A stretch of 64,000 nucleotides of DNA from an uncultured Candidatus Saccharibacteria bacterium (GCA_964520545.1 CAZFOD010000004.1:4844-68843), one strand, 5' to 3'. Shown: positions 12,545 to 64,000, numbered from the stretch's first letter. Numbers and translations: made by a program. The notes: a model not told the origin generated them from the sequence alone.

Positions 12545-12550
12545 CATCTT

Positions 12551-14478: not shown

Positions 14479-14480
14479 AC

Positions 14481-14516
14481 GAAAGCGGCCACCGACAAAA
14501 TGTCAGTGGCCGCTTT
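14481..14516. terminator. bidirectional hairpin terminator
   Basis: aaagcggccac/gtggccgcttt. Confidence 0.55.
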
Positions 14517-14530
14517 AACGTTTGGAGATA

Positions 14531-32550: not shown

Positions 32551-32618
32551 AATATTTATTCAGTTTAGCATAACAAAAAGGAGATTCTCCTAAAAGAATC
32601 TCCTTTTTATTCCCTCCC

Positions 32619-32942: not shown

Positions 32943-32963
32943 ATTTGTTGTACTGTTTGGTTG

Positions 32964-33938: not shown

Positions 33939-33947
33939 CGTATTTGC

Positions 33948-34382: not shown

Positions 34383-34599
34383 GTTGATTCCTTTATTACT
34401 CCCTTACAAAACCTACTTTACCACTTCATCCCACTTACATACTATTCTATACCACTCCTCTACCCTGTCAAAGCATAGTTATCCACTTTTCTGCACTCCT
34501 AAAAAGGAAAATATATGGCTTATTTCCTCATTATTCTGGCGATGTAGGTAAATACAAAAAGCGATGTCTCTTAAACATCGCCTTTTATATTATTTTTTA

Positions 34600-36192: not shown

Positions 36193-36218
36193 ATATGAAA
36201 CTAGTATACCCTAACTCT

Positions 36219-36683: not shown

Positions 36684-36779
36684 AATTTTAAGTCACTACT
36701 ATACTCTTTTGGTACTCTCCAGTCAATCTATATTTAGCCTAAATTTAGTGTTCTGAGGTGTGTTCTTAATATAATCTTT

Positions 36780-38465
36780 TTATTGCCCTTGAAAATATTC
36801 AGGGGAATATATAGCCATCCAATCTAGGAGGCTTCTAACAGCAACAGAGGCGCTCATAGTGTTAGTTGCAGGGCCTTTTTCTAATAGCACAGCAAAGGCA
36901 TATTTTGGCTTGTCATAAGGAAAGAAACCTACAGACCATGAGTTAACATACCGCTTAAGGGTACCCAATTGAGCCGTTCCTGACTTTCCTGCTACTTCAG
37001 TAAAAGGGACATTGAGAAGCCCCATAGTTCCCTCCGTAACAGCAAGGCGCATACCCTCTCTGGCCACCCTAAAATGATCTGTATCTTTAGCTGGTATCTT
37101 CTCCTTAACAGCAGGGGCGCCAGCATTGTTTTTTAGGATAGTTGGGGTAAATAGCGTTCCATTGTTTGCAATCGCTGCTATAGACCTCACAGCCTGCGCA
37201 GGAGTGACCTGGAAGCCGTATTGGCCGATTGATGTGTTGTATGTGTCTCCAACACGCCAGATATCCCCCTCGAAGTTTTGAGCCTTCCATTCAGGAGTAG
37301 GAATGACCCCTTTCTTTCCACTGAAGAAACTGTTTTCAATAGCACGACCAAATCCAAACATCGTTGAATACTTATCAATATTGTTAATACCTAACCCCTT
37401 TTGAGATTGAAAACCTCCTCCAATCTGGTAGAAATATACGTCTGAAGAAACTGCAATGGCATGACGCATATCGGTATATCCATGAGCTTTCCAGTCATTG
37501 AAAACTGTAAACTCACCTGGCCGATATGGATTAGGAATCTTCAAAGATCCCGTACTTTCAATTTCCCTTTCAGGCGTGATTACACCTTCTTCGAGCGCAG
37601 CAAATGCAAGCATTGGTTTTACAATGGATCCTGGTGTATACAGACCAGCACTAACACGATCAAGGAAAGGATTACGATCATCAGTAAGGAATTTCTTGAT
37701 TGCTTCTGAGTCCTTACCGTCCGTCATGACACTCGAGTCATATTCGGGATATGAGACACTGGCGAGGACTTCACCAGTTTCTACATCCATTAAAATTCCT
37801 GCTCCACCATTAAACCCTGCCCTCTGTGCTAAATCTTTAATTGAGAAATATAACTGCTCTTGAATACGTGAATCTATTGAGAGATCTAAGTTCTTTCCCT
37901 TCTGCGCTGGGCGCACCATACTTTCAGAAACATGCTTACCTAAAGCATCGGTCTCCGTTATTTTAAGCCCGTTCTCACCTGTCATGAGATCATTGAAATA
38001 TTTTTCCACACCACCTCCACCTGTATATTCTGTATTGTAGTAAAATCCAAACTTATCCTTCTTCGGGTATTTTATAAACCCAATGAGATTATGAATTCCC
38101 TCCTCAGCTTTGTATTCTCGAAGTGAAAAGTCATTTTGTGTTGGATCAATAGTATTCCACGCGAGAAGAACACCATTCCTATCAGAAATGGAACCACGTT
38201 CAGAAAATATGAGACTGTGATGGAGACGGTTGTTCTCTGATATGCCATTAAACTTCGAGCCCTCAACAATCTGCAATGAAGTTAGTTTAAAGAGAAATAT
38301 TGCTGCGATTGCTATAAATATACCGCCAGTAATTTTTACCGTTCTTCTTGAGATTGGTTTTTCAATACGACCTTCAAACTGGTTGGTATCAAAATCCGGC
38401 AAATTTGAAGAATCAAGAAATATCTCATCTGGCTCTATCTCATTGCGGGAATATCGACGTATCAT
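36780..38465 (-). CDS. mrdA: penicillin-binding protein 2 (elongasome transpeptidase)
   Basis: Class B PBP with SIVKP and KSGTAQ motifs, located downstream of mreBCD. Confidence 0.8.
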   Translation of the reverse strand: MIRRYSRNEIEPDEIFLDSSNLPDFDTNQFEGRIEKPISRRTVKITGGIFIAIAAIFLFKLTSLQIVEGSKFNGISENNRLHHSLIFSERGSISDRNGVLLAWNTIDPTQNDFSLREYKAEEGIHNLIGFIKYPKKDKFGFYYNTEYTGGGGVEKYFNDLMTGENGLKITETDALGKHVSESMVRPAQKGKNLDLSIDSRIQEQLYFSIKDLAQRAGFNGGAGILMDVETGEVLASVSYPEYDSSVMTDGKDSEAIKKFLTDDRNPFLDRVSAGLYTPGSIVKPMLAFAALEEGVITPEREIESTGSLKIPNPYRPGEFTVFNDWKAHGYTDMRHAIAVSSDVYFYQIGGGFQSQKGLGINNIDKYSTMFGFGRAIENSFFSGKKGVIPTPEWKAQNFEGDIWRVGDTYNTSIGQYGFQVTPAQAVRSIAAIANNGTLFTPTILKNNAGAPAVKEKIPAKDTDHFRVAREGMRLAVTEGTMGLLNVPFTEVAGKSGTAQLGTLKRYVNSWSVGFFPYDKPKYAFAVLLEKGPATNTMSASVAVRSLLDWMAIYSPEYFQGQ

Positions 38466-38737
38466 GCACTGAATCTTACTCGTTTTTTAAGCTTTCTCAA
38501 AGCAAAGAGCATGAAGAAAGCAGTAAGAGTAAACCCGTAAGGAACGGCATGGCTAAATACATGGAAAAAGTGGCCACTGGCATAGAACGTATCAATTAAA
38601 AAACCTAGGATAATCATTTCGTAAAAATCACAATACCAACAAGCTAAGATTGCAATGAGGCAAGGCACCCACCATGGTAAAAAGAAAAGCGACAACAAGA
38701 TCGCAATATCAACGATGATTCGCTTTGAATTGGACAT
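38462..38737 (-). CDS. mreD: rod shape-determining protein MreD-like
   Basis: Small polytopic membrane protein between mreC and mrdA. Confidence 0.5.
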   Translation of the reverse strand: MSNSKRIIVDIAILLSLFFLPWWVPCLIAILACWYCDFYEMIILGFLIDTFYASGHFFHVFSHAVPYGFTLTAFFMLFALRKLKKRVRFSA

Positions 38738-39446
38738 ATCGAAGTGTATTAATATTTATCGGACTCTTAAAATATATATGTGCGTATGCATCACCATTCC
38801 CAGAATCAACAACCTCAACGCTGCCGAGTAGTATGGTCTGAATATCTGGCCAAATGACAGGATCCCCTTTTTGTATCTCAATATTCCTTGGTAGTTTTAT
38901 GTAAAAATTACCACCGCCTTGTCCTTCAGCAGAAACTGCAGTAGTGCTTGATCCGATGAGGACACTTGCTTTCTGTCCTGATGATGAGAAGAGCATAACT
39001 ACAGATCTGTTTTCAGAGACTTCGACCACCTTACCAATGGCATAGTGCATTTCAGCATATATGATATCTCCAACCAAAAGACCCATATTGTTTCCAGCAT
39101 CGATGATGATAGAGTCGTACGGACTTTGCGGAGGTCTCACAAGAACAGCTGCAAGTGTCATCTGCTCTTTGTCTGTCGATCTTCCAAGTAGTGCTTTCAA
39201 TTGTTCGTTCTCTGATTGCAATGTCGTAACGAGAGAATTCTCAGCAGATGGGCTAACAACAGCACCTCCAGTTCGAAATATCATCCCTCGAAAAGAGTAG
39301 AACGAGTTTGCAATTGGATTTCCTAAAAGATATCCAATCCCCGTAAGTATCAACACGAGTACAAGCGCAGAAAGAGTCTGGGTGATACCAAATCCCCTTC
39401 TTTGCACTGGTCTATGTAGTTTCCTATCGGGCTGATGGTAGTTCAT
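38709..39446 (-). CDS. mreC: rod shape-determining protein MreC
   Basis: N-terminal TM, coiled coil (LQSENEQLKALL) and MreC beta-domain motifs. Confidence 0.8.
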   Translation of the reverse strand: MNYHQPDRKLHRPVQRRGFGITQTLSALVLVLILTGIGYLLGNPIANSFYSFRGMIFRTGGAVVSPSAENSLVTTLQSENEQLKALLGRSTDKEQMTLAAVLVRPPQSPYDSIIIDAGNNMGLLVGDIIYAEMHYAIGKVVEVSENRSVVMLFSSSGQKASVLIGSSTTAVSAEGQGGGNFYIKLPRNIEIQKGDPVIWPDIQTILLGSVEVVDSGNGDAYAHIYFKSPININTLRYVQFKANHR

Positions 39447-40488
39447 CTTCGTTTTGAATTAGCATGTCATAGAAAGACTCGAGGTCTTCGAGGATAATAC
39501 CGGCACCTCTCGCAACAGCAGTCAAAGGATCATTAGCTAGATGCACTGGAATACCTACATACTCAGAGAGGACCTCTGGTAGACCTCGAATGAGTGCTCC
39601 TCCACCTGAAAGATGGATACCATTTCTCATAACATCAGAAAGTATTTCGGGTGGCGTTGTCTCAAGTACCTCCTTTACTGAATCAAGGAGCGTATCTATT
39701 GCAGCACCAATTGCCTCTCTCACATCCGCATCAGTGACAATAACTTCTCGTGGAAGTCCGGTGACAAGATCACGCCCACGTATCGCAGCTTCAAGCGGAG
39801 GCTGGCATGGGATGACACTCGCAATCTGTATCTTAATATCCTCAGCAGTCTTTTCTCCAATCAAAATCTTAAACTCATTTCGTATATACGACATGATGTC
39901 GCTGTTAAACTTGTCACCAGCAATCTTAAGATTTTTTGCTCGTACAATTCCTCCTAATGAAATGACAGCGATATCTGTTGTTCCGCCACCGATGTCGATA
40001 ATCATACTTCCAGTAGCTTCCCGTACAGGAAGACGAATACCGATTGCAGCAGACATTGGCTCTTCAATGATATGCACCTCTCTTGCACCTGCATTTTTAG
40101 CAGCATCACGAACCGCACGACGCTCTACGTTAGTAACTCCATAAGGCACACCAATAACAACTTTTGGACCAAGCATTTTCTTCGAAATACCTTCTGCTTT
40201 CTTGATGAGATATGAAAGCATTTCTTCTGTTACCTCAAAGTCAGAGATGACACCGTCGACAAGAGGACGTACCGCAACAATGTGTCCTGGAGTTCTTCCA
40301 AGCATTGCCTTAGCTTGTGTACCAACGGCAACCACACGTCCTGTCTTTTGATTTACAGCAACAACTGATGGTTCATTTATGATCACACCTCTTCCAGAAA
40401 CATACACAAGCGTATTAGCAGTACCGAGGTCGATACCGATGTCGTTGGAAGCCATCTTAAAGAATTTTTTTCGTAAATTGTTGAACAT
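39424..40488 (-). CDS. mreB: rod shape-determining protein MreB
   Basis: MFNNLRKKFFKMASNDIGIDLGTANTLVYV... matches the actin-fold MreB consensus. Confidence 0.95.
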   Translation of the reverse strand: MFNNLRKKFFKMASNDIGIDLGTANTLVYVSGRGVIINEPSVVAVNQKTGRVVAVGTQAKAMLGRTPGHIVAVRPLVDGVISDFEVTEEMLSYLIKKAEGISKKMLGPKVVIGVPYGVTNVERRAVRDAAKNAGAREVHIIEEPMSAAIGIRLPVREATGSMIIDIGGGTTDIAVISLGGIVRAKNLKIAGDKFNSDIMSYIRNEFKILIGEKTAEDIKIQIASVIPCQPPLEAAIRGRDLVTGLPREVIVTDADVREAIGAAIDTLLDSVKEVLETTPPEILSDVMRNGIHLSGGGALIRGLPEVLSEYVGIPVHLANDPLTAVARGAGIILEDLESFYDMLIQNEDELPSAR

Positions 40489-40492
40489 AGTA

Positions 40493-41773
40493 TTACTGAG
40501 CGTTCCGAACCAGATTCATACGTACAAGGATTTCATCTGAAGCAACGTGAGTGACTTCTCCAGACTTTCGATCTTTCACTTCGAGCAACATTTTTCCATC
40601 TGGACCAACTGTATTCTTGTCACTTACTACAATGCGAGTTGGTAATCCAATGAGATCTGCATCGTTTAGCTTCTCTCCTGCTCGTGCGTGTGCACGGTCG
40701 TCATAGAGTACTTCAAAACCAGCGTCCTGAAGTTCTTGATACAGTTTGTCAGCTCGAGAAGCGGCATCGTCTGAACCAGATATATGTACAAGGTGAATAT
40801 CAAATGGAGCAACACTTCTTGGCCAAATGATTCCAGCCTCATCATTCGATGCCTCTACAATTGCACCCATGAGCCGAGGTACACCGATGCCATAGCTTCC
40901 CATGATGACAGGTTGCATACTTCCGTCTTCTGCTTGGAATGACAATCCTAAAGGTTCAGAAAACTTTGTTCCGAGATTAAATATATTTCCAACCTCTACT
41001 GCTTTTTCTTCAACGAGGTCTTCTCTTTTGAGATCAAGTTGTGCAAGCACCTCGTCGGTAAGCACCTCTTGATTTATGGCAATATTCTTTTTCTTGTCGA
41101 CGAAGATAGAATCTTCTCCTGCATCAGTAAGCATTTGAAACTCATGTGAAAATTGTGCAAATGACCCGCCTGATGCAAAAGTAACAAATGTCTTATCTCC
41201 AATACCCGCTTTCTGAAATATCTTCACATATGCCTCTTTTGCCTTTTCATAGAACTGAGCACGGCCATCTTCTGTAGCAGAAAAAGAATAAAGGTCTTTC
41301 ATAAGAAATTCCCTTCCTCGGAGAATACCGCTTTTTGCTCGCTTTTCGTTTCGGAACTTTGTCTGGAATTGATATATGTACGCAGGAAGATCTCGGAAAG
41401 ATCGAATGTGATCTTTAAGAACTGTTGTGAGAGGCTCTTCGTGAGTGAAGCCGAGACCAAGCTCAGTATCATTCTTCAACTTTGTCTTAAACCAGTTATC
41501 AACAACAGCATCATCCCATCGCCCAGTCTTTGTCCACATTTCCTTTTCCTGAAGTGATGCGAGAGAAACTTCTTGACCACCAATTGCATTCATCTCATCA
41601 CGAATGATTGTTTTAATCTTTTCGATTACTCGTTCTCCAAGTGGTAGGTAGGAATATACGCCAGCCTGCATCTTTTGAATAAATCCGGCACGAATAAGGA
41701 GCTGCGCATTCTTTGAAGTCTCATCTTTTGGAGCTTCTCGACGGGTCTTTGTAAAGAGGTGTGATTGGCGCAT
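40493..41773 (-). CDS. proS: prolyl-tRNA synthetase (short form, no editing insertion)
   Basis: N-terminus MRQSHLFTKTRREAPKDETSKNAQLLIRAGFIQKMQAGVYSYLPLGERV with class II motifs; 426 aa. Confidence 0.9.
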   Translation of the reverse strand: MRQSHLFTKTRREAPKDETSKNAQLLIRAGFIQKMQAGVYSYLPLGERVIEKIKTIIRDEMNAIGGQEVSLASLQEKEMWTKTGRWDDAVVDNWFKTKLKNDTELGLGFTHEEPLTTVLKDHIRSFRDLPAYIYQFQTKFRNEKRAKSGILRGREFLMKDLYSFSATEDGRAQFYEKAKEAYVKIFQKAGIGDKTFVTFASGGSFAQFSHEFQMLTDAGEDSIFVDKKKNIAINQEVLTDEVLAQLDLKREDLVEEKAVEVGNIFNLGTKFSEPLGLSFQAEDGSMQPVIMGSYGIGVPRLMGAIVEASNDEAGIIWPRSVAPFDIHLVHISGSDDAASRADKLYQELQDAGFEVLYDDRAHARAGEKLNDADLIGLPTRIVVSDKNTVGPDGKMLLEVKDRKSGEVTHVASDEILVRMNLVRNAQ

Positions 41774-41826
41774 AGTTGCCCTATTCTATAGAAAAACAAA
41801 GGAGGACACAACTAACCAGTTCCTAG

Positions 41827-42906
41827 CTAGAAGAACCTGGAAATATCCTTGAAGGTAACCAATATCATGAGCAGTATGAGGAAGCAGAATCCAATGACAT
41901 TAACCCAATTGATGACAGAGGGCTTAAGGGGTCGTCGTATGATGGCCTCTATTGCAACAACTACTAGTCGCCCGCCATCTAGAGCTGGAAATGGCACAAG
42001 GTTTATAGCAGCAAGGTTTACTGAAATCACTGCTGTTATGGTAATGAGATATGCAATGCCCATTCGTGAAGCTTCACCGACAACACCCGCAATACCAACA
42101 GGGCCACTCACATCTTTAAAGTTTGCCTGGCCTATGAATATGTTTCCGATGAAAGTAGAAAGTCCTTTAACTACGTTTACTGAAAGATGATATGTCTGGA
42201 TGGCACCAAAATACAAAGCAGAGAAAGGATTCATTCTAATCGTTCCAACTTCACTCATTGAAATGCCGATTGCCTTCTTCCCTTCAACAATTCCAGGCTT
42301 AGGAACGACAGTTGCAGATTTAGTCTCTCTGTTTTCTGTATATGTCACAGCAATCTGACTACTTGTTGCAATGAGATCTTGAACTGATGCAATGGTAAGA
42401 GATGAGGTGGCAAGAGTTACACCGGCGCCATACACACTAACAAGTTCAATTCCAGGCTTAAGACCTGCCAACGCTGCAGGGCTATCAGCAGATACAAAAT
42501 CAATGACCACAGACCGGTCTTTAACCGAAGATGTTGGGAAACCTTCAGTTGTTGTCTTTGTACCAATGCTTAGTGAAAGTGAGATGAGAAGCCATGCGAA
42601 GATGACATTGAAAGTAACTCCTGCAACAAGAACAATTGCCTGCTGCCATCGAGGCTTAGAAAGAATACTGTCAGATGTCACTTCATCATCAGGGCTTTCT
42701 CCAAATATACGAACATACCCTCCTAGTGGCAAAAGATTAATTGCATACCGAGTCTTACCCCATACCCTACTCCAGATTTGTGGAGGAAAACCAACGGCAA
42801 ATTCATCTACTCGAATTCCGAATAGTCTTGCCGCTAGAAAATGTCCGAGTTCATGAACAAATACAAGGATTGTGAGGACTATGAGAAAGATTATTGTTGT
42901 GAGCAT
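41827..42906 (-). CDS. rseP: RIP metalloprotease RseP (site-2 protease, M50) with PDZ domain
   Basis: HELGHF zinc motif in TM1, PDZ domain and C-terminal TM helices. Confidence 0.9.
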   Translation of the reverse strand: MLTTIIFLIVLTILVFVHELGHFLAARLFGIRVDEFAVGFPPQIWSRVWGKTRYAINLLPLGGYVRIFGESPDDEVTSDSILSKPRWQQAIVLVAGVTFNVIFAWLLISLSLSIGTKTTTEGFPTSSVKDRSVVIDFVSADSPAALAGLKPGIELVSVYGAGVTLATSSLTIASVQDLIATSSQIAVTYTENRETKSATVVPKPGIVEGKKAIGISMSEVGTIRMNPFSALYFGAIQTYHLSVNVVKGLSTFIGNIFIGQANFKDVSGPVGIAGVVGEASRMGIAYLITITAVISVNLAAINLVPFPALDGGRLVVVAIEAIIRRPLKPSVINWVNVIGFCFLILLMILVTFKDISRFF

Positions 42907-42908
42907 TA

Positions 42909-43460
42909 TTATATTGAGATTTCCTGCTCCTTTTTGTTGAATAGCTCCTCAAGCTTTCTTGAACCTTCCTGTACATGCTTTTCCATTTCTGCCTTGTTTC
43001 GCATCATTTCATCCTCTCCCATTTCTCCATTCTTCTTCTTTTCATTAAGGTCATCAGAAACTTCACTTCGCTCTCGTCGAATTGCAACACGAGCATCTTC
43101 AAGCTTCTCTTTTGCAACCTTTACCAACTGCTGCCTTCTTTCTCCTGTAAGTTCTGGGAAGATGACACGAACACCTTTGTCGTCTACAGCGACAGATACA
43201 CCGAGATTTGATGCGGTGATAGCTCGTTCAATTGCCTGTGTCTGAGATGAATCCCATGGAGAGATTCGGATAGTCTTTGCATCCTCAGTTGAGATGTTTG
43301 CCAAAGAGTTTATGGGCATTTCTGTGCCATATGATTCTACCTTTATACCATCAAGGAAAGCAGTTGAGGCCCTACCTGTACGAATCCCTGCAAACTCACG
43401 AGTAAGCCAATCTTGAGTCTCTTTAATCTTCTGTTGTAGTTTGGAAAAATTATATGCCAT
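42909..43460 (-). CDS. frr: ribosome recycling factor
   Basis: MAYNFSKLQQKIKETQDWLTREFAGIRTGRAS... matches the RRF consensus; start at the internal ATG 43460. Confidence 0.9.
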   Translation of the reverse strand: MAYNFSKLQQKIKETQDWLTREFAGIRTGRASTAFLDGIKVESYGTEMPINSLANISTEDAKTIRISPWDSSQTQAIERAITASNLGVSVAVDDKGVRVIFPELTGERRQQLVKVAKEKLEDARVAIRRERSEVSDDLNEKKKNGEMGEDEMMRNKAEMEKHVQEGSRKLEELFNKKEQEISI

Positions 43461-43541
43461 ATGGGACGATTTTAGCATGTTTGATACACAAAACAAAACC
43501 CGTCGCCACCTGGCAACGGGTTTTAGCTTCCTCACGGTAGA

Positions 43542-43790
43542 TTAGCCAGGGTTGCCAATCTTGATACGGAAACGCGGTTCGTGATCGAGGTGGCCGATGC
43601 GAGTGGCGCGGTACATTATTTTGTCGATGCGACGAACGTTGTGAGTCTCTCCGCCAGCCGAGGAGCAATAGACGACCTTTTCGGGAATTTCTTCTTTTCC
43701 AATGACAACGACGGCGTCATAGGCATAGCCTGGAGTGGGAAGAATCATAGAGATTTGAGGTTGAGATGTGCTATTCATAGACAGTTCCAT
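43542..43790 (-). CDS. hypothetical protein
   Basis: 82-aa ORF with a terminator hairpin at about 43497-43530 downstream; function unknown. Confidence 0.3.
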   Translation of the reverse strand: MELSMNSTSQPQISMILPTPGYAYDAVVVIGKEEIPEKVVYCSSAGGETHNVRRIDKIMYRATRIGHLDHEPRFRIKIGNPG

Positions 43791-43871
43791 CAGAATTTAT
43801 CGGGATTAACCACACAACGTTATTGTTGTCCTAAAAAGGATATATCACCGCATGGCATTCTCGTCAACGGT

Positions 43872-44972
43872 TTACCGCAGTGTGATAAGCATAATCTCAG
43901 AATCAGTACCTACCCTCATTGGAGGACCCCATGTACCGACACCACTTGTCGTAATGACCTTAAGACTAGAATCTGTTCCGAATGAATTGAGACCATAATC
44001 GAATCCTTTAAAGATTAGCTTTGGTATGTAGCTAAAAGGATACATCTGCGCGCGATGAGTGTGACCTGAGACCTGGAGAGATATACCAGCTTCGTACGGT
44101 ATTTCAAGTAAGTTTGGTTGGTGTTTTATTAAAATCGAAGCAACTCCCCTATCTATATCCAAACCTTCAATAACCTTACTAAAAGTCTCTCTGTTAGTAG
44201 ATGTCGTATCGTCTACGCCGATGATTTGTAGACCATCAACAACAATCATTTCATCATTCAATACCTTAATGCCTGTTCCTGATACGGCAGAAAGAAACTT
44301 TGAGTTATCTCTAAAGTTCTCATGGTTTCCTGTGGCAAAGTAAGTTCCAAAAGGTGTACGTAATGCGCGAAGAGGCTCAATAATATCTACTTCATCAACC
44401 TTCACTCCATCATAGAGATCCCCTGGCATCAAAACGATATCAGGTGACAGTGAATTAATCTTCTCAACTACCTTAGTGGCAAATGCTTTAGAATTCACTT
44501 GGCCCAGATGCATATCTGCAACTAAAACTAATCTTCTCCCCTTCCAGCTTTCTGGAAGGTTAGGCACCTCAACATTTATTTCCGATACAACGATCTGTCG
44601 TGCGTGAAAGAGACCATATATTCCACCAATGACTGATACAGCGATTAATATCATTCCAACAATATTCACCGGCTTATCAAACAACTTTGCGAATAATGTG
44701 CAAAGGGAAAATACAACAGACGAAATGAAGAGATATCCCAGAAAGCCAAGCCATGTTACTGAGAGCGTATACAAAGTTCTACTCAGCATATTGTTAAAAT
44801 TAGAGGCAAAGATTGCAGACAATATGAATGAAACAGCAAGGACTACAAAAACACTACGCATTACAACCAAAGCGCTACCTCCCGATATTGCAAATGTAAC
44901 AATGAACATCTTGTAAACAGCGAGATGTACCAAGAAAACTATAGCGGTAACAATTGAAATGAATATGATCAT
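43872..44972 (-). CDS. membrane-anchored metallophosphoesterase (YkuE-like)
   Basis: Four N-terminal TM helices followed by the calcineurin-like motifs VLVADMHLG, GDLYDG, GNHE and GHTH. Confidence 0.8.
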   Translation of the reverse strand: MIIFISIVTAIVFLVHLAVYKMFIVTFAISGGSALVVMRSVFVVLAVSFILSAIFASNFNNMLSRTLYTLSVTWLGFLGYLFISSVVFSLCTLFAKLFDKPVNIVGMILIAVSVIGGIYGLFHARQIVVSEINVEVPNLPESWKGRRLVLVADMHLGQVNSKAFATKVVEKINSLSPDIVLMPGDLYDGVKVDEVDIIEPLRALRTPFGTYFATGNHENFRDNSKFLSAVSGTGIKVLNDEMIVVDGLQIIGVDDTTSTNRETFSKVIEGLDIDRGVASILIKHQPNLLEIPYEAGISLQVSGHTHRAQMYPFSYIPKLIFKGFDYGLNSFGTDSSLKVITTSGVGTWGPPMRVGTDSEIMLITLR

Positions 44973-45679
44973 ATTTTTTTAATTCTAAGTGAAATGTATT
45001 CCAGTATCATTTTTATTGAACTCGATGGATCACGGAGATAATCAGAGGCTCGTGCAATGACAGAAAGATTATCAGCACTCTTGTCTTTCGAATGAGCGGA
45101 TTCCAGAACAGCTGACACAAACTGGAATATATCTTCCTTAGTTACCCGCTCCTTATCAAGATCAGCAATCATTTCTTTAACCATATCGAGGCGGAGTGAA
45201 ACTGAAGATGAAAGAAATTTCTTCACGCGTGGATCATGTGACTCTTCTCCTCCTCCAATATCGATGACGTGTACACGTGATAGGACTGTAGGAAGTAACA
45301 TTGAGACTGTAGGAAATGCAATGAAGAAGTGAGTGTTAGCAGTAGGTTCTTCAATCATCTTAAGAATGCTGTTTTGTGCCTGCATACTAATTCCGTTTCC
45401 TAGTATTACTATCACCTTCTTTGGCCCAATGGGAACTCTTTGATGCATTGAAATGGCATCTTGTAGATCTTCAATACCAATAGAACCATATTCCCCAACG
45501 AATACGTCGGGGTTTCCCTGAAAAGGAATCTTCATTTTCTCCACAACAAACTTTTCAATCTCCGTCTTTGCCTTTGCTAAAGATTCAGAGGTTATGACAT
45601 ATGCGTGATGGAGTTTCGATGGGTCAAGTTGAAGAGAAAGCATGTGGGTATTGTACATGGAAAACGCGGAAGCATACAT
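44969..45679 (-). CDS. holB: DNA polymerase III delta-prime-like subunit (clamp loader, degenerate P-loop)
   Basis: NSILKMIEEP...FFIAFPTVSMLLPTVLSRV corresponds to the sensor/SRC region of delta'; the P-loop is absent, as is typical for delta'. Confidence 0.6.
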   Translation of the reverse strand: MYASAFSMYNTHMLSLQLDPSKLHHAYVITSESLAKAKTEIEKFVVEKMKIPFQGNPDVFVGEYGSIGIEDLQDAISMHQRVPIGPKKVIVILGNGISMQAQNSILKMIEEPTANTHFFIAFPTVSMLLPTVLSRVHVIDIGGGEESHDPRVKKFLSSSVSLRLDMVKEMIADLDKERVTKEDIFQFVSAVLESAHSKDKSADNLSVIARASDYLRDPSSSIKMILEYISLRIKKI

Positions 45680-45700
45680 GCAAACGCCCCACTTAGTCCT

Positions 45701-46732
45701 TTATCTCTTCGCAATTATAGTCTTCTTGTACGTATCCAAATGCTCAAGTGCAATACCTGTTCCTTTAGCAACACAATACAAAGCATCTTTAGCGAGAGCC
45801 GCTTTCACACCAGTGCGTCGAAATACCAATTCAGGAAGATTACGAAGCTGAGAAGATCCACCAGTCATGATGATGCCGTGGTCAATGATATCTGAAGCTA
45901 GTTCCGGAGGAGTTTCCTGAAGTACATCTTTAATTGCTTTCACCATGTCCCTGAGTTCTTTGCTTATAGCCTTCACAATCTCATTTGTCTTAATATCAAC
46001 CGAACGAGGAAGACCTGTAAGGAAATCTCTTCCTTTAATAGTCATTGTAAGTTCTTCTTCCACTGGTACCGCTGATCCAATATTTATCTTAATATCCTCC
46101 GCTGTCTTGTCTCCAATACCTAGGTTATATGTTTTTTTAATAAAGTCAGCGATTGCAGCATCAATTCGATTACCAGCACACTTAACTGATGTGCATGCAA
46201 CAATTCCTCCCAAAGAGATTACGGCAACATCAGTTGTACCTCCACCAATGTCGACAATCATATGTCCTACCGCTTCTTGAATTGAAATACCAGCACCGAT
46301 AGCAGCAAGAATTGGTTCCTTAACAACGTATGCATTCTTAGCACCTGCTTTTATTGCAGCTTCAATTACTGCACGTCTTTCAGTTGATGTCACTCCAGCA
46401 GGAACTGACACCATAACTTCAGGTTTCCAAATATTCCATCTTCCCAATGCTTTGTTTATAAAATACCGGAGCATCGCTTCTGTTACTCGATAGTCAGCGA
46501 TAACACCATCTTTCATCGGGCGATATGCAATGATGCTGTCCGGTGTCTTACCAATCATATCTTTTGCATCATTACCTACAGCTAGAATCTGGTTATCCTG
46601 CTCGGACACGGCAACAACAGAAGGTTCGTTGAGTACAATTCCCTTCCCTGGTAAAAACACGAGCGTGTTAGCTGTACCAAGATCTATCCCGAGTTTTTTA
46701 GAAAACATTCCCATGAGGCAATGATACAGCAA
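45701..46732 (-). CDS. MreB paralog (Mbl-like actin homolog)
   Basis: MGMFSKKLGIDLGTANTLVFLPGKGIVLNEPSVVAV... is a second full-length MreB-family protein. Confidence 0.9.
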   Translation of the reverse strand: MLYHCLMGMFSKKLGIDLGTANTLVFLPGKGIVLNEPSVVAVSEQDNQILAVGNDAKDMIGKTPDSIIAYRPMKDGVIADYRVTEAMLRYFINKALGRWNIWKPEVMVSVPAGVTSTERRAVIEAAIKAGAKNAYVVKEPILAAIGAGISIQEAVGHMIVDIGGGTTDVAVISLGGIVACTSVKCAGNRIDAAIADFIKKTYNLGIGDKTAEDIKINIGSAVPVEEELTMTIKGRDFLTGLPRSVDIKTNEIVKAISKELRDMVKAIKDVLQETPPELASDIIDHGIIMTGGSSQLRNLPELVFRRTGVKAALAKDALYCVAKGTGIALEHLDTYKKTIIAKR

Positions 46733-53427: not shown

Positions 53428-54306
53428 TTAGGCCTCAGCGAGCACCTCAGCTTCCTGGGGCACATCGCCTTCCGTGCGATCCATCCCCGCGGCAATGTCC
53501 GTGAAGACGTTGTTGCAGGGGAAGAAGGCACTCAAGGCCACGTCGTTCGGGCGGACTTCGATGAGGAAGTTGCCGCCCGAGAACTCCAGACTCCGAGTCG
53601 CCAGTTTGCTCAACCGACCCTCCGCAATCCGGCGGCCTTTCCCCCCACCCTTCCGACGTTCAAAGACGCGGAGGAAGAGGTTACCGTCGGTCACCAACAC
53701 CTGATGCATCGGCAGCGGTGTTGGAGGAGGCAATTCTTCCATCACGTGAGGCACGACGACGGGTTCAGTCTTCACTTTCGGGGGCCGTGGCGCCTTTTCA
53801 GGTCCGTTGGGCTTGGGAAGCGACACCTCGCGATGCTTCGCCTTCCAGGGTCCGCTGCCGCGCTGTTTGAAACGTGGCGGCCTGAAACCCGGCTTCTCCG
53901 AACGCTTTGCCGGCGCAGACGCAGGCAGAGCTTCCGACTTGACCGGGGCCTCCTCCTGGGGCACCACTGGCACTTGAGGCTTTACGGCCGCGGGCTGTTC
54001 CCGGAGAACGTAAGTAGGGTTGCACCACATGTCGTAGTTCGCCCATGCGATAGCGACCGTCTCACCGTTTTTGACCTGATCGATCTGGCAAGCAATCTTG
54101 GTCCCAGGCTCGATCAAAGCGGGTTTGTCCCTCACGTCGGTGAAGACGTGGTTTCCTCCACAACTCACGAACCGCCGCCGGTTCGCGAATGGGAGCTTGA
54201 TTTTGAGAGGGTCGCCTTCGACCGACTTTGCAACTGCGAAACCACCCTTTGGAAGGATGGATACAATGCTCACAAGGAGCACATTTGGACTGACATTGTA
54301 TTTCAT
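53428..54306 (-). CDS. secreted two-domain protein with Pro-rich linker (hypothetical), GC-rich
   Basis: Signal peptide; repeated motif C(G)GNxVFTD[VI] in the N- and C-terminal domains; central Pro/Lys-rich linker. The opposite-strand ORF 53404..54381 is Arg-rich and looks like an antisense artefact. Confidence 0.5.
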   Translation of the reverse strand: MKYNVSPNVLLVSIVSILPKGGFAVAKSVEGDPLKIKLPFANRRRFVSCGGNHVFTDVRDKPALIEPGTKIACQIDQVKNGETVAIAWANYDMWCNPTYVLREQPAAVKPQVPVVPQEEAPVKSEALPASAPAKRSEKPGFRPPRFKQRGSGPWKAKHREVSLPKPNGPEKAPRPPKVKTEPVVVPHVMEELPPPTPLPMHQVLVTDGNLFLRVFERRKGGGKGRRIAEGRLSKLATRSLEFSGGNFLIEVRPNDVALSAFFPCNNVFTDIAAGMDRTEGDVPQEAEVLAEA

Positions 54307-56872: not shown

Positions 56873-57541
56873 ATGACAAACAAAATGACTCTTAAGGCGT
56901 CTACTCGTTTTGTATTTGCTGCTGGTCTCATGACTACAGCTCTTGCAATCGCAGTTCTCCCTTCAATTACACGTGCAGATACCCTCTATCGACAGCTACA
57001 ACTTGGAATGTCTGGTGGCGATGTTTCAACACTTCAAACATTTCTTGCTAAAGATACTTCAATATATCCTCAGGGACTTGTGACAGGATACTTCGGATCA
57101 CTCACAAAGTCAGGTGTCGTGAATTTCCAGGTTAGAAATGGAATCTCTCCTGTTGGACGAGTTGGACCACAGACACTTGCTGTCATTAACTCACAAATGG
57201 GCGGCCTAGTTACAGGAAACGACCAGCGATCTCCAACGATTAGTGGTGTAAATCTAAATGTCTCAGCTTCAACAGCAACTGTTGCATGGAATACAGATGA
57301 AAATTCATCAGGTCTCTTGTACTACAGCACATCTCCACTTTCACTTAGTGAAGGAAGTGAGACAGCTGCGATTACGGTTTATGGAACTTCAGTAATTGCC
57401 AACATCAATCTTCAATCAATGCACAGCACTACTGTGACTGGTCTCCAGGCGAATACGACATACTACTACCTAGTATATTCTCGTGATAACGCTGGAAATG
57501 AAAGCATTTCATGGCCATCAACCTTCCGTACTTCAAACTAA
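56873..57541 (+). CDS. secreted peptidoglycan-binding domain + fibronectin type III-like domain protein (paralog 1)
   Basis: Signal peptide; PG_binding_1-like segment (LQLGMSGGDVSTLQTFLA...GYFGSLTKSGVVNFQVRNGISPVGRVGPQTLAVIN); FN3-like C-terminus (TATVAWNTDENSSG...TGLQANTTYYY). Confidence 0.65.
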   Translation: MTNKMTLKASTRFVFAAGLMTTALAIAVLPSITRADTLYRQLQLGMSGGDVSTLQTFLAKDTSIYPQGLVTGYFGSLTKSGVVNFQVRNGISPVGRVGPQTLAVINSQMGGLVTGNDQRSPTISGVNLNVSASTATVAWNTDENSSGLLYYSTSPLSLSEGSETAAITVYGTSVIANINLQSMHSTTVTGLQANTTYYYLVYSRDNAGNESISWPSTFRTSN

Positions 57542-57898
57542 ATACGGATACAGGTACAACAAAAGCCGACACGCGTCGGCTTTTTTGTTTGCACACTTTG
57601 CTTAGAAACCTAATCCGGCAAGTCTTAGAAGCCAAATGATGACGACAACGACTAGAACAATCTGTACTGGCTTTACAATCTGCGCTGGTAAAAGCGGAAG
57701 GAGGTAGGTATATATCACCCAAAGGACAACGATGACGAGGAGGATCTGTAATATCATGAGAATTTTAAATTAAATGGTTACCTCTAGATTGTACCACTAT
57801 ATAATTTTTAATTTACGTAGATTATACCCAATCTTAATGAAGATTAAGTAATTTTGATGAAAATTGTTAATAAATTTGTTATAGTGAAACTATACTCC

Positions 57899-59398
57899 AT
57901 GAGCATTAAAAGATACCTTTCTGTCATAGTCATCGTCGGTCTGCTTGTAAGCTTTTTGCCGACACAAAAAGCAGAGGCAGATACCGTAGTTGGCACTATT
58001 TCTGTTGGATATTTGCCTATAAGCATAGGTACGCTTGGAACTAAAGTTTATGTAGCCAATCTACTCCATGACTCTGTATCAATTATTGATACAGAGAACA
58101 ATAATACGGTTTCAACAATACAAGTTGGTGCCACTCCGTATGCAATAACAACACTGGGTCAAAAGGTGTATGTCGCAAACAACGGTGATGCGACAGTCTC
58201 AATCATTGATACTGCCAATAATAACGCAGTTACTTCAGTTAATGTTGAAAACAGCCCTTACTATATAACCGCATCAAGTACGAAAGTGTATGTGGTGAAT
58301 AATATTGGTAGTGTTTCGATAATTGATACCGCAAATAACAACGCAGTTACAAACATACCAGTTGGAGGGGGTCCTCAGGGTTTAGCTCTTTTGGGAACAA
58401 ATGTCTACGTTGTAGATTCCGCTGGCGGCACAGTTACAGTCATAGATACAGCAAATAACAACGCGACAACGACCGTAAACGTAGGGCAAGCACCCCTTGA
58501 CATCGTTACACTGGGTTCGAAAGTTTATGTGGTTGATAACAACGAAAATCGAATTTCAATTATCGACCCTGGCAATAACAACAATGTCACATCGGTAAAT
58601 GTCGGAAACAGTCCTAGCTACATTACAAAATTAGGAACAAAACTCTATGTAACAAACTATCTCGACAATACGGTCTCAATCATTGATACAGCAAACAATA
58701 ATGCGGTTTCAACTGTCTCAGTGGGCATTGGACCTCAAGCTATTTACGCATTTGGGACAAAAGTGTATGTAGCCAACGTCGATGGTACTGGAAATAAAGT
58801 TTCGATCATCGACACATCGGACGGGGATTCTGTATCTACCGTTACAGTTGGAGCCACGCCTCAAGCTTTTACTAGCCTTGGAACTAAAGTTTATGTAGTA
58901 AATATTAGCAGTAATAATGTTTCCATTATAGAAACAGCGCCTTCTCCAGCCGCCATTGGAGGCTTCTCTACTTCCTACTCCTATGATTATATAAATGGAA
59001 TTTTGACGACAACTACTGGAAACATGGTTTCAACAAGTTCAATTCCAAAAATACTCCCATTCGCTCAAACTCAAGCTACATCATCACCAGCCGTAGCTAC
59101 GACCACACCCCCTACTGTTCAGCCAACACCAGTTCCAGTTCAAGAAAAGTTTTCATTCCTCAAGGATCTTAAATACAAAGACATTGATACTGACGTGCTA
59201 AAGCTTCAACAGTTTCTAAACTCACATGGAGCAACGGTTTCAATTTCTGGTGCAGGATCTATTGGTAAAGAAACAACACTCTTCGGACCGGCAACTCGTG
59301 CTGCTTTGATTAAATTTCAGAAAGCTAATAACATCCGACCTTCAGTGGGATTCTTCGGTCCAATAACTAGAGGAATTGTAAACGCATTGTTACGTTAG
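57899..59398 (+). CDS. YVTN-family beta-propeller repeat surface protein with C-terminal peptidoglycan-binding domain
   Basis: About nine repeats of about 40 aa (KVYVAN..D.TVSIIDTANNN.V.TV.VG..P); C-terminus DVLKLQQFLNSHG...FGPATRAALIKFQKANNI matches PG_binding_1; signal peptide starts at M16. Confidence 0.7.
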   Translation: MSIKRYLSVIVIVGLLVSFLPTQKAEADTVVGTISVGYLPISIGTLGTKVYVANLLHDSVSIIDTENNNTVSTIQVGATPYAITTLGQKVYVANNGDATVSIIDTANNNAVTSVNVENSPYYITASSTKVYVVNNIGSVSIIDTANNNAVTNIPVGGGPQGLALLGTNVYVVDSAGGTVTVIDTANNNATTTVNVGQAPLDIVTLGSKVYVVDNNENRISIIDPGNNNNVTSVNVGNSPSYITKLGTKLYVTNYLDNTVSIIDTANNNAVSTVSVGIGPQAIYAFGTKVYVANVDGTGNKVSIIDTSDGDSVSTVTVGATPQAFTSLGTKVYVVNISSNNVSIIETAPSPAAIGGFSTSYSYDYINGILTTTTGNMVSTSSIPKILPFAQTQATSSPAVATTTPPTVQPTPVPVQEKFSFLKDLKYKDIDTDVLKLQQFLNSHGATVSISGAGSIGKETTLFGPATRAALIKFQKANNIRPSVGFFGPITRGIVNALLR

Positions 59399-59413
59399 AT
59401 AACAAAATAATTG

Positions 59414-59944
59414 TTACATCTTTCTACTATCATACGCCCAATGGAGTAGGGCTTGTCTTTGAACAGGACGGCACATCTCATCTCCAACTCTGCAGTTATA
59501 TTTAATTTGGTAGATATGTCGACTAACAGCTTTCCACCTTTTAATCTGGCGCTCATCGTCTGGTCCTCGACGACCCATATAATATCGGCAATACCACTGG
59601 AACCATCCTCGGGGATCATCTTTGTAAATCCATCCCTTCTTTTTCCAAACAGAAAGTGACTGACTGGCGTTGACCTTAAAGAAATTTAGGTCGGGATTTC
59701 GCTTGTATATTCCCTCCTCTTGAAACTTTGCCTTTGTAAACCACTCTTTAGGAAACTCTTTAGTACAGTCTCTCATGTACACACCTCCAAACACACCGAG
59801 TGCAAGCATTTCTTGCGGTGTAAAGTCTGGCTTGAATTCAGGATCAAAGTTTTTACCAACAGGCTCTGATATCTCATACACATACCCTTTCTGCATCCGA
59901 TCATTTACCTTAACAGTTTTCTTTCTCATTAGTTTAATATCCAA
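59414..59944 (-). CDS. hypothetical conserved protein (W/Y/R/K-rich)
   Basis: 176-aa ORF whose start overlaps the tspO stop by 16 nt; no family recognised from sequence alone. Confidence 0.45.
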   Translation of the reverse strand: MDIKLMRKKTVKVNDRMQKGYVYEISEPVGKNFDPEFKPDFTPQEMLALGVFGGVYMRDCTKEFPKEWFTKAKFQEEGIYKRNPDLNFFKVNASQSLSVWKKKGWIYKDDPRGWFQWYCRYYMGRRGPDDERQIKRWKAVSRHIYQIKYNCRVGDEMCRPVQRQALLHWAYDSRKM

Positions 59945-60405
59945 ATCATAAAGTTTAGATACGAAGCAAAACTAACCCACAGGATATATGGTACCAGTAA
60001 CCATACAGCAGGCTTCGATATCTTAGAAAACAAAAACATAGTCCATACAATGGCGAGCCACATTGCACCGATGTTTACCAACGCCCATCCAGGGCTTTGC
60101 AAGCCGAAGAATACAATTGACCACAATGTGTTAAGGACGAGTTGAAGCCCAAAAACAGAAAGTGCTGTTTTAACACCTGAGTATTTCCATCCCCTCTTGT
60201 ATATTAAGTAAGCAGCGATACCCATGAGGGCGTACAGAGTCGTCCAAACAGGGCCAAATATCCAACCAGGAGGATTGAGTGCGGGTTTTGCAAGTGTGGC
60301 ATACCAACTTGTGACTGATGAGACAGTAAAGACTGATCCGATGATACCAGCAAGTTCAGACACAACAACAAATGCTAAGAGCTTCAGGAAAGAGTTTTTA
60401 TTCAT
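59929..60405 (-). CDS. tspO: TspO/MBR family tryptophan-rich sensory protein
   Basis: Five TM helices with conserved Trp-rich motifs (GWIFGPVWTTLYALMGIAAY...). Confidence 0.85.
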   Translation of the reverse strand: MNKNSFLKLLAFVVVSELAGIIGSVFTVSSVTSWYATLAKPALNPPGWIFGPVWTTLYALMGIAAYLIYKRGWKYSGVKTALSVFGLQLVLNTLWSIVFFGLQSPGWALVNIGAMWLAIVWTMFLFSKISKPAVWLLVPYILWVSFASYLNFMIWILN

Positions 60406-60451
60406 TTACAAATTATATCAAATTAGGCAGTGGTTTACATTAAGCAATTAG

Positions 60452-60880
60452 CTATTTCGTAGCCGGAGCTTCCACTGTCCACTCAATACCATATTTGTCT
60501 CTGAACATACCAAAGTATGTTCCCCAAGGACTCTCGGCCATTGGCATCTCTACCTGCCCTCCGGCTGAGAGACCGTTGAATATAGCTTCCGTTTCTTCTT
60601 TAGTCTCTGCACTAACTGAAATCTTACTTCTATTTTCATTCTCATTAACCTTACCCATGAATGAAGGTATGTCATTTGCCATCAACACATTACCCTTACC
60701 AATTGGTAAAGTAATGAGCATAATTTTATTTGCATCCTCATCAGTTACTGGAAATTCTGGACCTGCGAGATCTTTAAAACGAATAATCTTTGTAAACTCT
60801 CCACCAAATATTGATTTATAAAATGTAAAAGCTTCTTCAGCATTACCATTAAAGTTAATCCAAGGATTTATTGTTGTCAT
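60452..60880 (-). CDS. VOC (glyoxalase/bleomycin-resistance-like, PhnB-type) protein
   Basis: INPWINFNGNAEEAFTFYKSIFGGE...GIEWTV matches the PhnB/3-demethylubiquinone-methyltransferase-like VOC family. Confidence 0.75.
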   Translation of the reverse strand: MTTINPWINFNGNAEEAFTFYKSIFGGEFTKIIRFKDLAGPEFPVTDEDANKIMLITLPIGKGNVLMANDIPSFMGKVNENENRSKISVSAETKEETEAIFNGLSAGGQVEMPMAESPWGTYFGMFRDKYGIEWTVEAPATK

Positions 60881-61032
60881 GTCGTGATTATATCAAATAT
60901 GCCGGACTGCCTATTAAAATCATGAGGTCCGGTGTCAACTTATCTTTTTGGCGTGAAAAGAAAAACCGCCTGCTGGGTACAGGCGGCGGTTGAGTTCTTT
61001 TATGACTATTTAAATCCCAGTAGTCATGTTGG

Positions 61033-61578
61033 TTATTGGAGATCAGCTCCGTCTGAAACACTTCGTGGTTCCAGCCCGACAGATCTCACGAGGTCGAGAA
61101 ACGCTAGGCATTCTTCCTCTTGGGTTGGGATGGCCCCAAAACGAGAACCGGTGTGCACTTGTGGGAGATTGTCTTTGTTTTTCTTGCACCAGGCAAAGAA
61201 TTCCTTCTCAGCCTGTGACAGATGGGCCACATCCTCTTCGACAAGCATAGACACGAGGTCCATGTTTGCAACCATGCTGCTTTCGCCATAGTAGGTGAAG
61301 AACGGGATACTTTTTGTATCTAACGGTTTGTCCGTCATCAGCTTGAAGCCTTTGCTTCTTAACCAAGCCCATTCCAGGAGTTGGTTTTGCCGACCGAGCA
61401 GAAAGAAGTTACCCTCCGGAAAAGTCCAGACTTCCCTGCTTCTCGCTGAACGCAGGAGGCTGTACGCCGTGTGGTGTTCTCCGTCCGCACATGGGACATT
61501 TTCCCTGTGAATTTCCATGCCGATATCCGTGAGGAACCAGCGCAGGGATTTGAATAGACTGCTAACTTTTTTAAACAT
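61033..61578 (-). CDS. hypothetical protein (GC-rich)
   Basis: 181 aa with a terminator hairpin at about 60968-60995 downstream. Confidence 0.4.
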   Translation of the reverse strand: MFKKVSSLFKSLRWFLTDIGMEIHRENVPCADGEHHTAYSLLRSARSREVWTFPEGNFFLLGRQNQLLEWAWLRSKGFKLMTDKPLDTKSIPFFTYYGESSMVANMDLVSMLVEEDVAHLSQAEKEFFAWCKKNKDNLPQVHTGSRFGAIPTQEEECLAFLDLVRSVGLEPRSVSDGADLQ

Positions 61579-62110
61579 GGATTGCTCCTTTTGTTGTTGA
61601 GGTTTCGAACTGTTTCAATCAAAGTTTTACCCTGATTGCCTGTTGGCAACAATACCACCGATATTTAAGTGTGTCTAATTAAAAACACCCCGCTAGGAAT
61701 TGAACCTTTGCGGGGTGTCTAAGAAGATTCGAAAAGGATTACCCTCCGAAACAAGGAACTAATCTTTGCCCGTCATAATGGTTACGAACTGGATCTTCAC
61801 GATCACCGATTTCAATCCTCCTGGATGGTTGACGAACCTTTTTGGGTTTGAGGGATTTATTCTTGCGAATATTGATACTTTTTTTTCATTTCATTTAGTT
61901 GTTGAGTGCCGTTTCCGACACAAGGTTCAATGACTTGTCTCCAAGTTGTTCGGTATCAATGATGCCTGCGGTATAGGAAAAGTCAATTTTAATCCAAGGT
62001 TCAAACCCAATCTTGGGTAACAGAAAAAGACCTCGTCTTGCAAGGTCTTTTTCATTAGGTTCAGACACTAGAGAATGTTCGAACCTGTTTCAGAACTACA
62101 AACAATATCT

Positions 62111-62776
62111 TTATTGTGCAGTCCTAAATATTGCAGGCCAAGTTATACTTTCATTTCCAGAAGCATCTTTAACATATACTACGTAGTAGTAATTTGTGTT
62201 TGACTGGAGACCAGTCAATGTAGCTCCGTGTGAAGTACTTAGATTCAAGTTTGCAATTACTGGTGTACCTGAAACAGTTATACCAGATACAGCGCTTCCT
62301 TCAGTCAACACCATTGGTGATGTGCTGTAGTATACAAGAGCTGAAGTATTGGTATCCGTATTCCATGAGAATGTCGCCGTTGAAGCCGAAGTACCTAGAC
62401 TAAGATTTCTAATGACTGGAACTAGCCTATCTGTTCCAACACGAGGACCTGTATTCATCTGCGCATTAATCACAGCAAGTGTCTGTGGTCCAACTCGACC
62501 GACGGTAGAAATTCCATTTCTTGCCTGGAAATTCATAACCGCTGACCTTGTTAATGAACCGAAATAACCTGTAACCAGACCTTGTGGATAAATTGAAGGA
62601 TCTGCAGCCAAAAAGGTCTGTAGATCTGAGACATCACTTCCACTCATACCAATCTGAAGCTGTCGAGTGAGCATAGCTGCAGAAGCGTTTAGAGGAAAAC
62701 TTGCTACTAATACAAACGAAAGTGCCAATAACCCCCCACTAACAACTTGAACTACCTTGTTTGAGAATAATTTCAT
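62111..62776 (-). CDS. secreted peptidoglycan-binding + FN3-like domain protein (paralog 2, inverted relative to 56873..57541)
   Basis: About 65% aa identity to paralog 1 over the full length; a shared 26-nt identical DNA stretch (cgagttggaccacagacacttgctgt). Confidence 0.65.
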   Translation of the reverse strand: MKLFSNKVVQVVSGGLLALSFVLVASFPLNASAAMLTRQLQIGMSGSDVSDLQTFLAADPSIYPQGLVTGYFGSLTRSAVMNFQARNGISTVGRVGPQTLAVINAQMNTGPRVGTDRLVPVIRNLSLGTSASTATFSWNTDTNTSALVYYSTSPMVLTEGSAVSGITVSGTPVIANLNLSTSHGATLTGLQSNTNYYYVVYVKDASGNESITWPAIFRTAQ

Positions 62777-63481: not shown

Positions 63482-64000
63482 GGTGATTCGAGTAAGCGTT
63501 ATTGATTTCTCACCCAGACACTAAATCAACAAACTACTTAAGCCAGTCCAGCTTTATAACCGAAGCATTTGGGTATGGAGGAATATCATAAAACAGTTTT
63601 GGATCGATTCCCCTTTTAATTGTCTCCATGATTATTGGGAATATTTTTACTGATACTGGCTATTTTTTTGGCGGAGAATTTGATATGTATTTGCTTCTTA
63701 TCTTACTTATTAGTCCGTAGATACCAACTGTAAACACCACAAGTCCAAGCAATTGTGCCCCTGGGCTGTCGTCAGCCCCGCCAAACACAAACATAAAAAC
63801 ACCGAGGAGAATATTGAAGATAAAAGATGTAATTATTAGTTTTTTATACATTTTTATAATATAACATATTTTGATTCCTATCGCGGACGAGTTCAGAACT
63901 ATAGACTGGATGAAGATAAAAATTGAAATGAGTAAATTGAGTTTTGTATAAAATGGAAAACCGCCCCAGCATAGCTGTTCAGGCGGTCTTTGTTTTGGCT

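Follow-up and report, generated by a model that had tools for sequence, protein, structure and literature searches.

The window analysed here is a 64-kb stretch of DNA from an uncultured Candidatus Saccharibacteria bacterium (64,000 nucleotides; GCA_964520545.1 CAZFOD010000004.1:4844-68843). Near its end lie two genes, referred to as copies A and B, which encode proteins with a peptidoglycan (PG)-binding domain and an FN3-like domain and which are placed in an inverted, head-to-head layout on either side of an interval of ~4.6 kb. Our analysis indicates that A and B are very probably old paralogs of a protein family of Paceibacterota and that their inverted layout is a by-product of gene turnover, the locus being neither an invertible element nor a co-inherited module. 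The family is usually single-copy within 10 kb, and A and B are each an independent single-gene unit; they belong to a known domain family as ordinary members, and what is specific to the lineage is their arrangement. The paralogy of the two genes, their domains and fold, the age of the duplication, the absence of a recombinase and the absence of the arrangement from the other loci examined are directly supported by the results described below.

Two diverged copies of a two-domain family

A sequence-only reading of this DNA had proposed the two inverted PG-binding/FN3 paralogs, and both were confirmed as open reading frames (ORFs) at the positions listed in Table 1. Independent gene calls place the start of copy A probably at 56885, which gives a protein of 218 amino acids (aa). 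The sequence of copy B is that of a database protein (P0021), and a 194-kb NCBI contig carries proteins identical to A and to B. A third copy of the family was not found within the window. In a BLASTP comparison, 130 of 210 residues are identical between A and B (62% aa identity, E = 3e-90), and the identity amounts to 67% when 183 trimmed columns of the mature proteins are compared. The aligned DNA is identical at 432 of 662 positions (65%). The longest perfect run is 26 nucleotides (nt) and is the only one of its size, the next longest being 12-14 nt; a repeat scan detected inverted arms with lengths of 226 nt (76% identity) and 121 nt (71%). The paralogy that had been claimed from ~65% aa identity and 26-nt perfect stretches is therefore upheld, but the identity obtained by BLASTP is 62% and the stretches are reduced to one.

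To place the copies within the family, we constructed a neighbour-joining tree of 122 family proteins using 183 trimmed columns. A and B are not sisters in this tree, and the smallest clade that contains both has 26 leaves. The only proteins that cluster with copy A are its 88-100% orthologs (P0001-P0003), and orthologs of A at 88-90% identity occur in three data sets. Copy B clusters with P0011, P0014, P0095 and P0026, which belong to other organisms and are 71-75% identical to it. Between A and its ortholog A' in the related strain L003, the nonsynonymous (dN) and synonymous (dS) distances are 0.056 and 0.70, respectively (dN/dS ~0.08), which indicates that A is a selected, functional gene. 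Between A and B, dN is 0.27 and dS is ~1.0. These comparisons indicate that A and B are long-diverged paralogs and that the duplication is old.

No near-identical segment or gene-conversion tract was seen along the A/B alignment. The 26-nt block encodes part of the family-invariant motif GRVGPQTLAV, and unrelated species already match 20-23 of the 26 bases at this site. Therefore, the run most simply reflects constraint and codon bias; gene conversion was rejected as its source, as no A-B region stands out. The fraction of identical residues that use the same codon is 0.53-0.60 between A and B, 0.37-0.52 across species and 0.65 between A and A'. Because the G+C content at third codon positions (GC3) is 0.27-0.29 in both copies, we attribute the small A-B excess to the shared codon bias of one genome, with which it fits. 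The A-B dS of 1.0 is lower than the dS of 2.7 between B and its ortholog, values that are near saturation; this difference was rejected as a sign of recombination, because it most likely arises from shared codon bias, GC3 being 0.42 in the B ortholog versus 0.27-0.29 in A and B.

The domain calls of the sequence-only reading were corroborated by Pfam, by an AlphaFold2 model of A and by Foldseek. Both copies exceed the curated cut-offs for PF01471 (PG_binding_1; 40.3 bits in A and 46.6 bits in B, cut-off 23) and PF16656 (Pur_ac_phosph_N, FN3-like; 40.9 and 43.7 bits, cut-off 30), and the Pfam fn3 profile itself is below its own cut-off in both. The model of A, which was built on 32 family members (mean predicted local distance difference test score, pLDDT, 81), contains a hydrophobic helix at residues 11-32, a helical bundle at 49-109, a low-confidence linker at ~110-120 and a beta-sandwich at 123-219. 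A Foldseek search of this model against PDB yielded FN3 domains (irisin, NCAM and titin Fn3) at E ~1e-5. The family profile matched the PG-binding domain of 1lbu (E = 6e-7), followed for the anchor domain by CtpB, SleB and endolysins, and the FN3 domain of chitinase A1 (1k85; E = 2e-4). No catalytic domain was detected in A or B. Ala-X-Ala-like sites are present in both copies (TRA/D in A and ASA/A in B), and together with the N-terminal hydrophobic helix of the model they point to Sec-type export. Both proteins are predicted to be exported and to bind peptidoglycan.

At least 1,459 homologs of copy A were detected, and those listed are ~205-260 aa long and contain both domains. Among the best 120, query cover is 84-100% and identity 52-100%, and the two Pfam domains of A occur in every one. 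The named sources are metagenome-assembled genomes (MAGs) of Patescibacteria, Paceibacterota or Parcubacteria, and as far as seen the two-domain family is restricted to such Patescibacteria-type MAGs. An alignment of 32 sequences contains 41 invariant columns. By profile, the N-terminal domain of A and B matches the PG_binding_1 wall-targeting modules of 1lbu (the Zn D-Ala-D-Ala carboxypeptidase of Streptomyces albus), of CtpB and SleB and of phage endolysins; in those proteins, however, the module carries an enzyme domain, whereas A and B carry only the FN3-like domain. Similarly, the C-terminus shares its fold with bacterial FN3 domains and with the N-terminal domains of purple acid phosphatases (PF16656, PF00041; 1k85), but it is attached to neither a phosphatase nor a glycosidase, and the proteins form a stand-alone two-domain family. 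We found no relevant paper on this family, nor on TspO in bacteria of the candidate phyla radiation. In Paceibacterota, the PG-binding/FN3 protein is a predicted component of the envelope, widespread and strongly conserved, that is not known to have been characterised.

These features allow a tentative scheme of how the proteins would act. A Sec-type signal peptide would export the protein, the helical bundle of PG_binding_1 would dock it non-covalently onto peptidoglycan, and the FN3 beta-sandwich, which is conserved, would then be displayed on the cell surface by the short flexible linker. The PG-binding domain is 83% identical in amino acid sequence between A and B, whereas the linker and the FN3 domain are only 25 and 60% identical, respectively. 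A retained anchor with a diverged linker and FN3 domain would be expected if the copies took on different roles, and the sequences suggest that A and B differ in partners or reach. This genome therefore appears to hold two forms of the protein, with the same anchor and different displayed domains.

Inversion, modularity and the origin of copy B

Inverted repeats at such a locus could act as a switch: recombination between A and B would flip the 4.6-kb interval, swap the heads and tails of the two proteins and generate surface variation at the population level. Inversion of the interval, raised in the sequence-only reading, was not borne out, and we regard such a switch as extremely unlikely. 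A and B are indeed collinear inverted paralogs in which a crossover keeps both frames open, they share the 26-nt identical block, and RecR is encoded in the window. However, the same reading had noted that too low a paralog identity would argue against a switch, and 65% nt identity with a single block longer than 14 nt is too low for efficient homologous recombination. In Bacillus subtilis, the MEPS (minimal efficient processing segment) is >40 bp, and recombination drops by up to ~45,000-fold as divergence rises to 20.8% (PMC4824099). With 35% nt divergence and one 26-nt block, A and B are a poor substrate for RecA-type recombination. No long identity tracts and no concerted evolution between the two copies were found, in line with their non-sister position in the tree.

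A site-specific mechanism is not supported either. No tyrosine or serine recombinase or transposase is present among the ~50 Pfam-annotated ORFs of the window, and no recombinase appears in gene lists reaching 3.5 kb beyond it. Instead of the short, near-identical repeats of invertons and shufflons, the locus has entire genes as repeats, and these share 65% nt identity. The assemblies of three further samples match the window at 99.99-100% identity, collinear and in the same orientation, and two of them (L001 and L085) span both copies and their unique flanks. The only contig break (SRR7369911) lies inside the VOC gene at 60810/60812, away from the repeats, and was rejected as structural variation at a repeat. 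We also constructed ten predicted chimeras, two for each of the five A/B identity blocks of at least 12 nt. All ten keep open reading frames, and the eight that correspond to the four longest blocks had no exact match in a collection of 15 billion proteins that holds both parents. In addition, L003 keeps the orientation of unk176, a gene of the interval, relative to A across a dS of 0.7. Finally, 10 promoter-like sites were found in the interval versus 16.6 expected from shuffled sequence; because such sites stay below the shuffled level, A has a putative terminator of its own and the genes are complete, a flip would change nothing obvious.

Comparison with known systems leads to the same view. 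The tufA/tufB genes of Salmonella and Escherichia coli, inverted rrn operons and copies of insertion sequences (IS) are near-identical along stretches of hundreds of bases, a similarity that conversion maintains. Like A and B, such pairs are inverted paralogs flanking other genes, in which a crossover inverts the interval and leaves both genes intact; unlike them, A and B are 65% identical, with a longest run of 26 nt and no visible conversion. The fim switch, Hin/Gin, the invertible promoters of Bacteroides and phase-variable hsdS combine short near-perfect repeats with a dedicated nearby recombinase, and in invertase-driven switches and shufflons the flip alters promoter direction or coding 3' ends. 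The A/B locus resembles these in that inverted repeats bracket a segment near surface-protein genes, but it has no recombinase in 64 kb, its repeats consist of entire genes that have diverged and each of its genes is complete in itself. The locus is thus of little importance as an inversion system, the evidence favouring ordinary old paralogs in a variable chromosomal patch, and a false lead is removed: inverted paralogs at 65% identity should not score as switch candidates. Very rare recombination at the 26-nt block, or short-patch conversion, yielding surface proteins with chimeric anchor and display parts, is a reading that we consider very unlikely; if it does take place, it would provide slow, recombinase-free surface variation in a symbiont lineage. 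As a separate observation, RecR is encoded at 21506-22138 (+) and RmuC at 24325-25434 (-). In E. coli, RmuC has been described as a factor that limits inversions at short inverted repeats, and no link between RmuC or RecR and the paralog locus was found.

The conservation of the arrangement was examined by a family alignment scan of one genome per species (GTDB), which yielded 80 loci, each from a different assembly and with as much as 10 kb of flanking sequence on either side. The species of the window is not among the genomes scanned, and the best match there is 64% identical. Seventy-six of the 80 loci contain one family gene, the remaining four contain a second, distant copy at 32-36% identity, and an inverted pair of close paralogs was found in none. 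The second family-like copies are located at 4288-5674 in L057, where the main and second copies are directly convergent, at 4049-4510 in L006, at 14835-15359 in L041 and at 18766-19137 in L079, indicating that the broader family has been duplicated locally more than once. The arrangement is already broken in L003, which is ~86% identical to the window in DNA. This relative lacks the YVTN gene, the segment corresponding to 57798-59404 being replaced by ~23 bp (L003 1140-1162) between A' and unk176'. Its TspO gene is a decayed N-terminal remnant of 48-67 aa (L003 1685-1888), which is followed by a start-less PG-binding fragment (L003 2356-2547) and, further on, by unrelated genes (rhodanese, methyltransferase, FUR, CobW and NAS). 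Copy B is not present on the 7.6-kb contig of L003. The comparison of synteny in relatives that had been proposed as a check on the locus thus speaks against a conserved arrangement.

The sequence-only reading had also suggested that the locus is a cell-envelope or host-interaction module. In such a module, the genes from VanY through B would be kept together for joint action on the wall or the host. The envelope theme holds for three of the seven genes, A, YVTN and B, all of which carry PG_binding_1 and N-terminal signal-like segments, with VanY adjacent; a coherent module is not supported, TspO, unk176, VOC and unk181 being unrelated to these three. Wall and shape genes are numerous in the window (two PBP2-type genes, two MreB genes, MreC and MraW), and other species also have VanY, g179 and g204 close to the family gene. 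However, each recurring neighbour occurs within 10 kb of the family gene in no more than 10 of the 80 loci (VanY in 10, g179 in 9, VOC in 7, g204 in 6, TspO in 4, unk176 in 2 and YVTN in 1), and their order and orientation are shuffled among species. YVTN is missing even in the close relative L003, TspO and unk176 exist as a pair by themselves in unrelated contexts, no signal peptide was seen on inspection in unk176, VOC or unk181, and unk181 is compositionally foreign. We therefore consider a coherent module improbable. Rather, the interval would be a variable chromosomal patch, made up of a YVTN gene specific to the strain, the TspO-unk176 operon, whose conservation is independent, a VOC gene and a GC-rich ORF that is foreign.

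The origin of copy B allows two explanations: the copies may stem from an old duplication that was followed by differential loss, or B may have been acquired from another Paceibacterota lineage. Under the latter, which we regard as possible but doubtful, B would be a xenolog, perhaps introduced together with unk181, rather than the product of a duplication in place. Its closest relatives are the proteins of other organisms at 71-75% identity, A and B sharing only 62-67% identity; the best 120 matches listed include no ortholog of B above 75%, whereas A has its 88-90% orthologs; L003 has no copy B within 7.6 kb; and the adjoining unk181 is foreign in composition. On the other hand, the composition of B is fully native (GC3 0.27, like A), old duplication and differential loss yield the same tree, and the locus of its nearest ortholog (L006) does not have the neighbours of B. 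Furthermore, the contigs of the relatives are short, so that the absence of B from them carries little weight.

Several observations weigh against the view that A and B are old, independent paralogs. The strain is represented by about four assemblies, each of which reports the majority form, and a rare minority orientation may exist. VanY, g179, g204, VOC, TspO and unk176 are found within 10 kb in 27 of the 80 loci, and from this recurrence some loose functional neighbourhood around the family gene may exist. The synonymous similarity between A and B is slightly higher than that across species, which could reflect very old conversion. In addition, the predicted secretion, wall docking, surface display and divergence in role derive from sequence and structure models.

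The interval and the TspO-unk176 pair

The genes that had been listed between the copies (YVTN, an unknown gene, TspO, VOC and a GC-rich ORF) were all identified (Table 1). The hairpin directly after copy A suggests that A is a single-gene unit; the terminator scan detected no more such sites than in shuffled sequence, and the hairpin is a consensus match only.

Table 1. Coordinates of the paralogs, their shared block and the intervening features
Feature	Position	Strand	Description
Copy A	56873..57541	+	222-aa ORF; predicted signal peptide, PG_binding_1, flexible linker, FN3-like domain
26-nt block in copy A	57158..57183	+	identical to 62472-62497 on the opposite strand; CGAGTTGGACCACAGACACTTGCTGT
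Terminator-like hairpin	57561..57584	+	directly 3' of copy A; 10-pair stem followed by a T run
YVTN-repeat beta-propeller protein with C-terminal PG_binding_1	57854..59398	+	predicted secreted; TIGR02276, PF21783, PF01471
unk176	59414..59944	-	176 aa, cytoplasmic-looking; downstream of TspO, overlapping
TspO/MBR membrane protein	59929..60405	-	PF03073, E = 3.8e-51, 173 bits, profile 1-145 of 145
VOC (glyoxalase/PhnB-like) protein	60452..60880	-	PF06983 and PF00903, both above cut-off
unk181	61033..61578	-	181 aa, GC-rich ORF; gene also called in independent assemblies
Copy B	62111..62776	-	221-aa ORF; architecture as copy A
26-nt block partner in copy B	62472..62497	-	pairs with 57158-57183

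The YVTN protein contains eight TIGR02276 repeats (191.8 bits, cut-off 27.85; E = 1e-57), and a 120-nt periodicity is visible in the DNA of its gene. The probable start according to independent gene calls is 57899, which gives 499 aa. Its domain order is opposite to that of A and B, the propeller preceding the PG-binding domain. Homologs of the VOC protein at 70-85% identity are present in six other species loci. The GC content of unk181 is 0.50 and its GC3 is 0.57 (versus ~0.3 in neighbouring genes), by which it is compositionally foreign; it matched no family and no PDB entry. An origin of the locus as a defence island or prophage was rejected, since there are no PADLOC matches for the locus and the PHROG matches concern only the PG-binding domain shared with endolysins.

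In the window, TspO and unk176 occupy 59414-60405 (-), and the unk176 gene overlaps the end of TspO. The same order, with a 4-nt overlap, recurs in L089/L090 (L089 3525-4519) and L092/L093 (L092 3531-4513), and the two genes are adjacent in reverse order in L088 (6001-6925). The unk176 protein of these pairs is 171-176 aa long. In L003, the TspO remnant lies beside unk176', and three other loci (L048, L051 and L091) have unk176 without a TspO neighbour. This recurrence indicates that the conserved unit inside the interval is the TspO-unk176 pair, independent of the flanking paralogs.

The unk176 family has at least 8,000 homologs. The best 120 are 73-95% identical and almost all 170-175 aa long, and these carry no Pfam domain and are named only "hypothetical protein". 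An alignment of 32 members contains 69 invariant columns, with four cysteines and the motif DPRGWFQWYCRYYxGRR. No match to unk176 was obtained in Pfam, NCBIfam, PADLOC, PHROGs or PDB sequences, and its AlphaFold2 model (pLDDT 74; predicted template modelling score, pTM, 0.75) gave no PDB fold match, the best Foldseek E being 3.5. Judging from gene order and conservation, unk176 may be an undescribed but widely conserved partner of TspO, and for studies of TspO function in bacteria this TspO-paired family offers a well-defined target.

Other features of the window

The window represents core chromosome, encoding three aminoacyl-tRNA synthetases, DnaB, RecR, RmuC, RRF and L9 in addition to wall and shape genes. 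The latter form a cluster at 30847-46732 that includes PBP2-type genes at 30847-32550 and 36780-38465, MraW, MreC and MreB genes at 39424-40488 and 45701-46732, which suggests rod-shape machinery in this Patescibacteria genome.

Several further ORFs are GC-rich compared with the window (GC 0.43) and its core genes (GC3 ~0.3-0.4). These include g292 (53428-54306, -; GC 0.60, GC3 0.69) and ORFs at 12551-13564, 10688-11641, 6714-7370 and 7597-8118 within the stretch 5300-15200 (GC3 0.57-0.69). BLASTP detected no relationship of the GC-rich ORFs to one another. Judging from composition, these ORFs, together with unk181, are likely foreign DNA. RNA elements were rejected as an explanation of the GC-rich stretch, Rfam at gathering thresholds giving only a tRNA-Glu at 30459-30530.

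Just past AHSA1, a 111-nt stretch at 63523-63633 (L001 10602-10712) duplicates, at 88% identity, the 3' end of a histidine-phosphatase gene, which itself lies ~0.9 kb further on, beyond the end of the window. This stretch looks like the remnant of a partial duplication.

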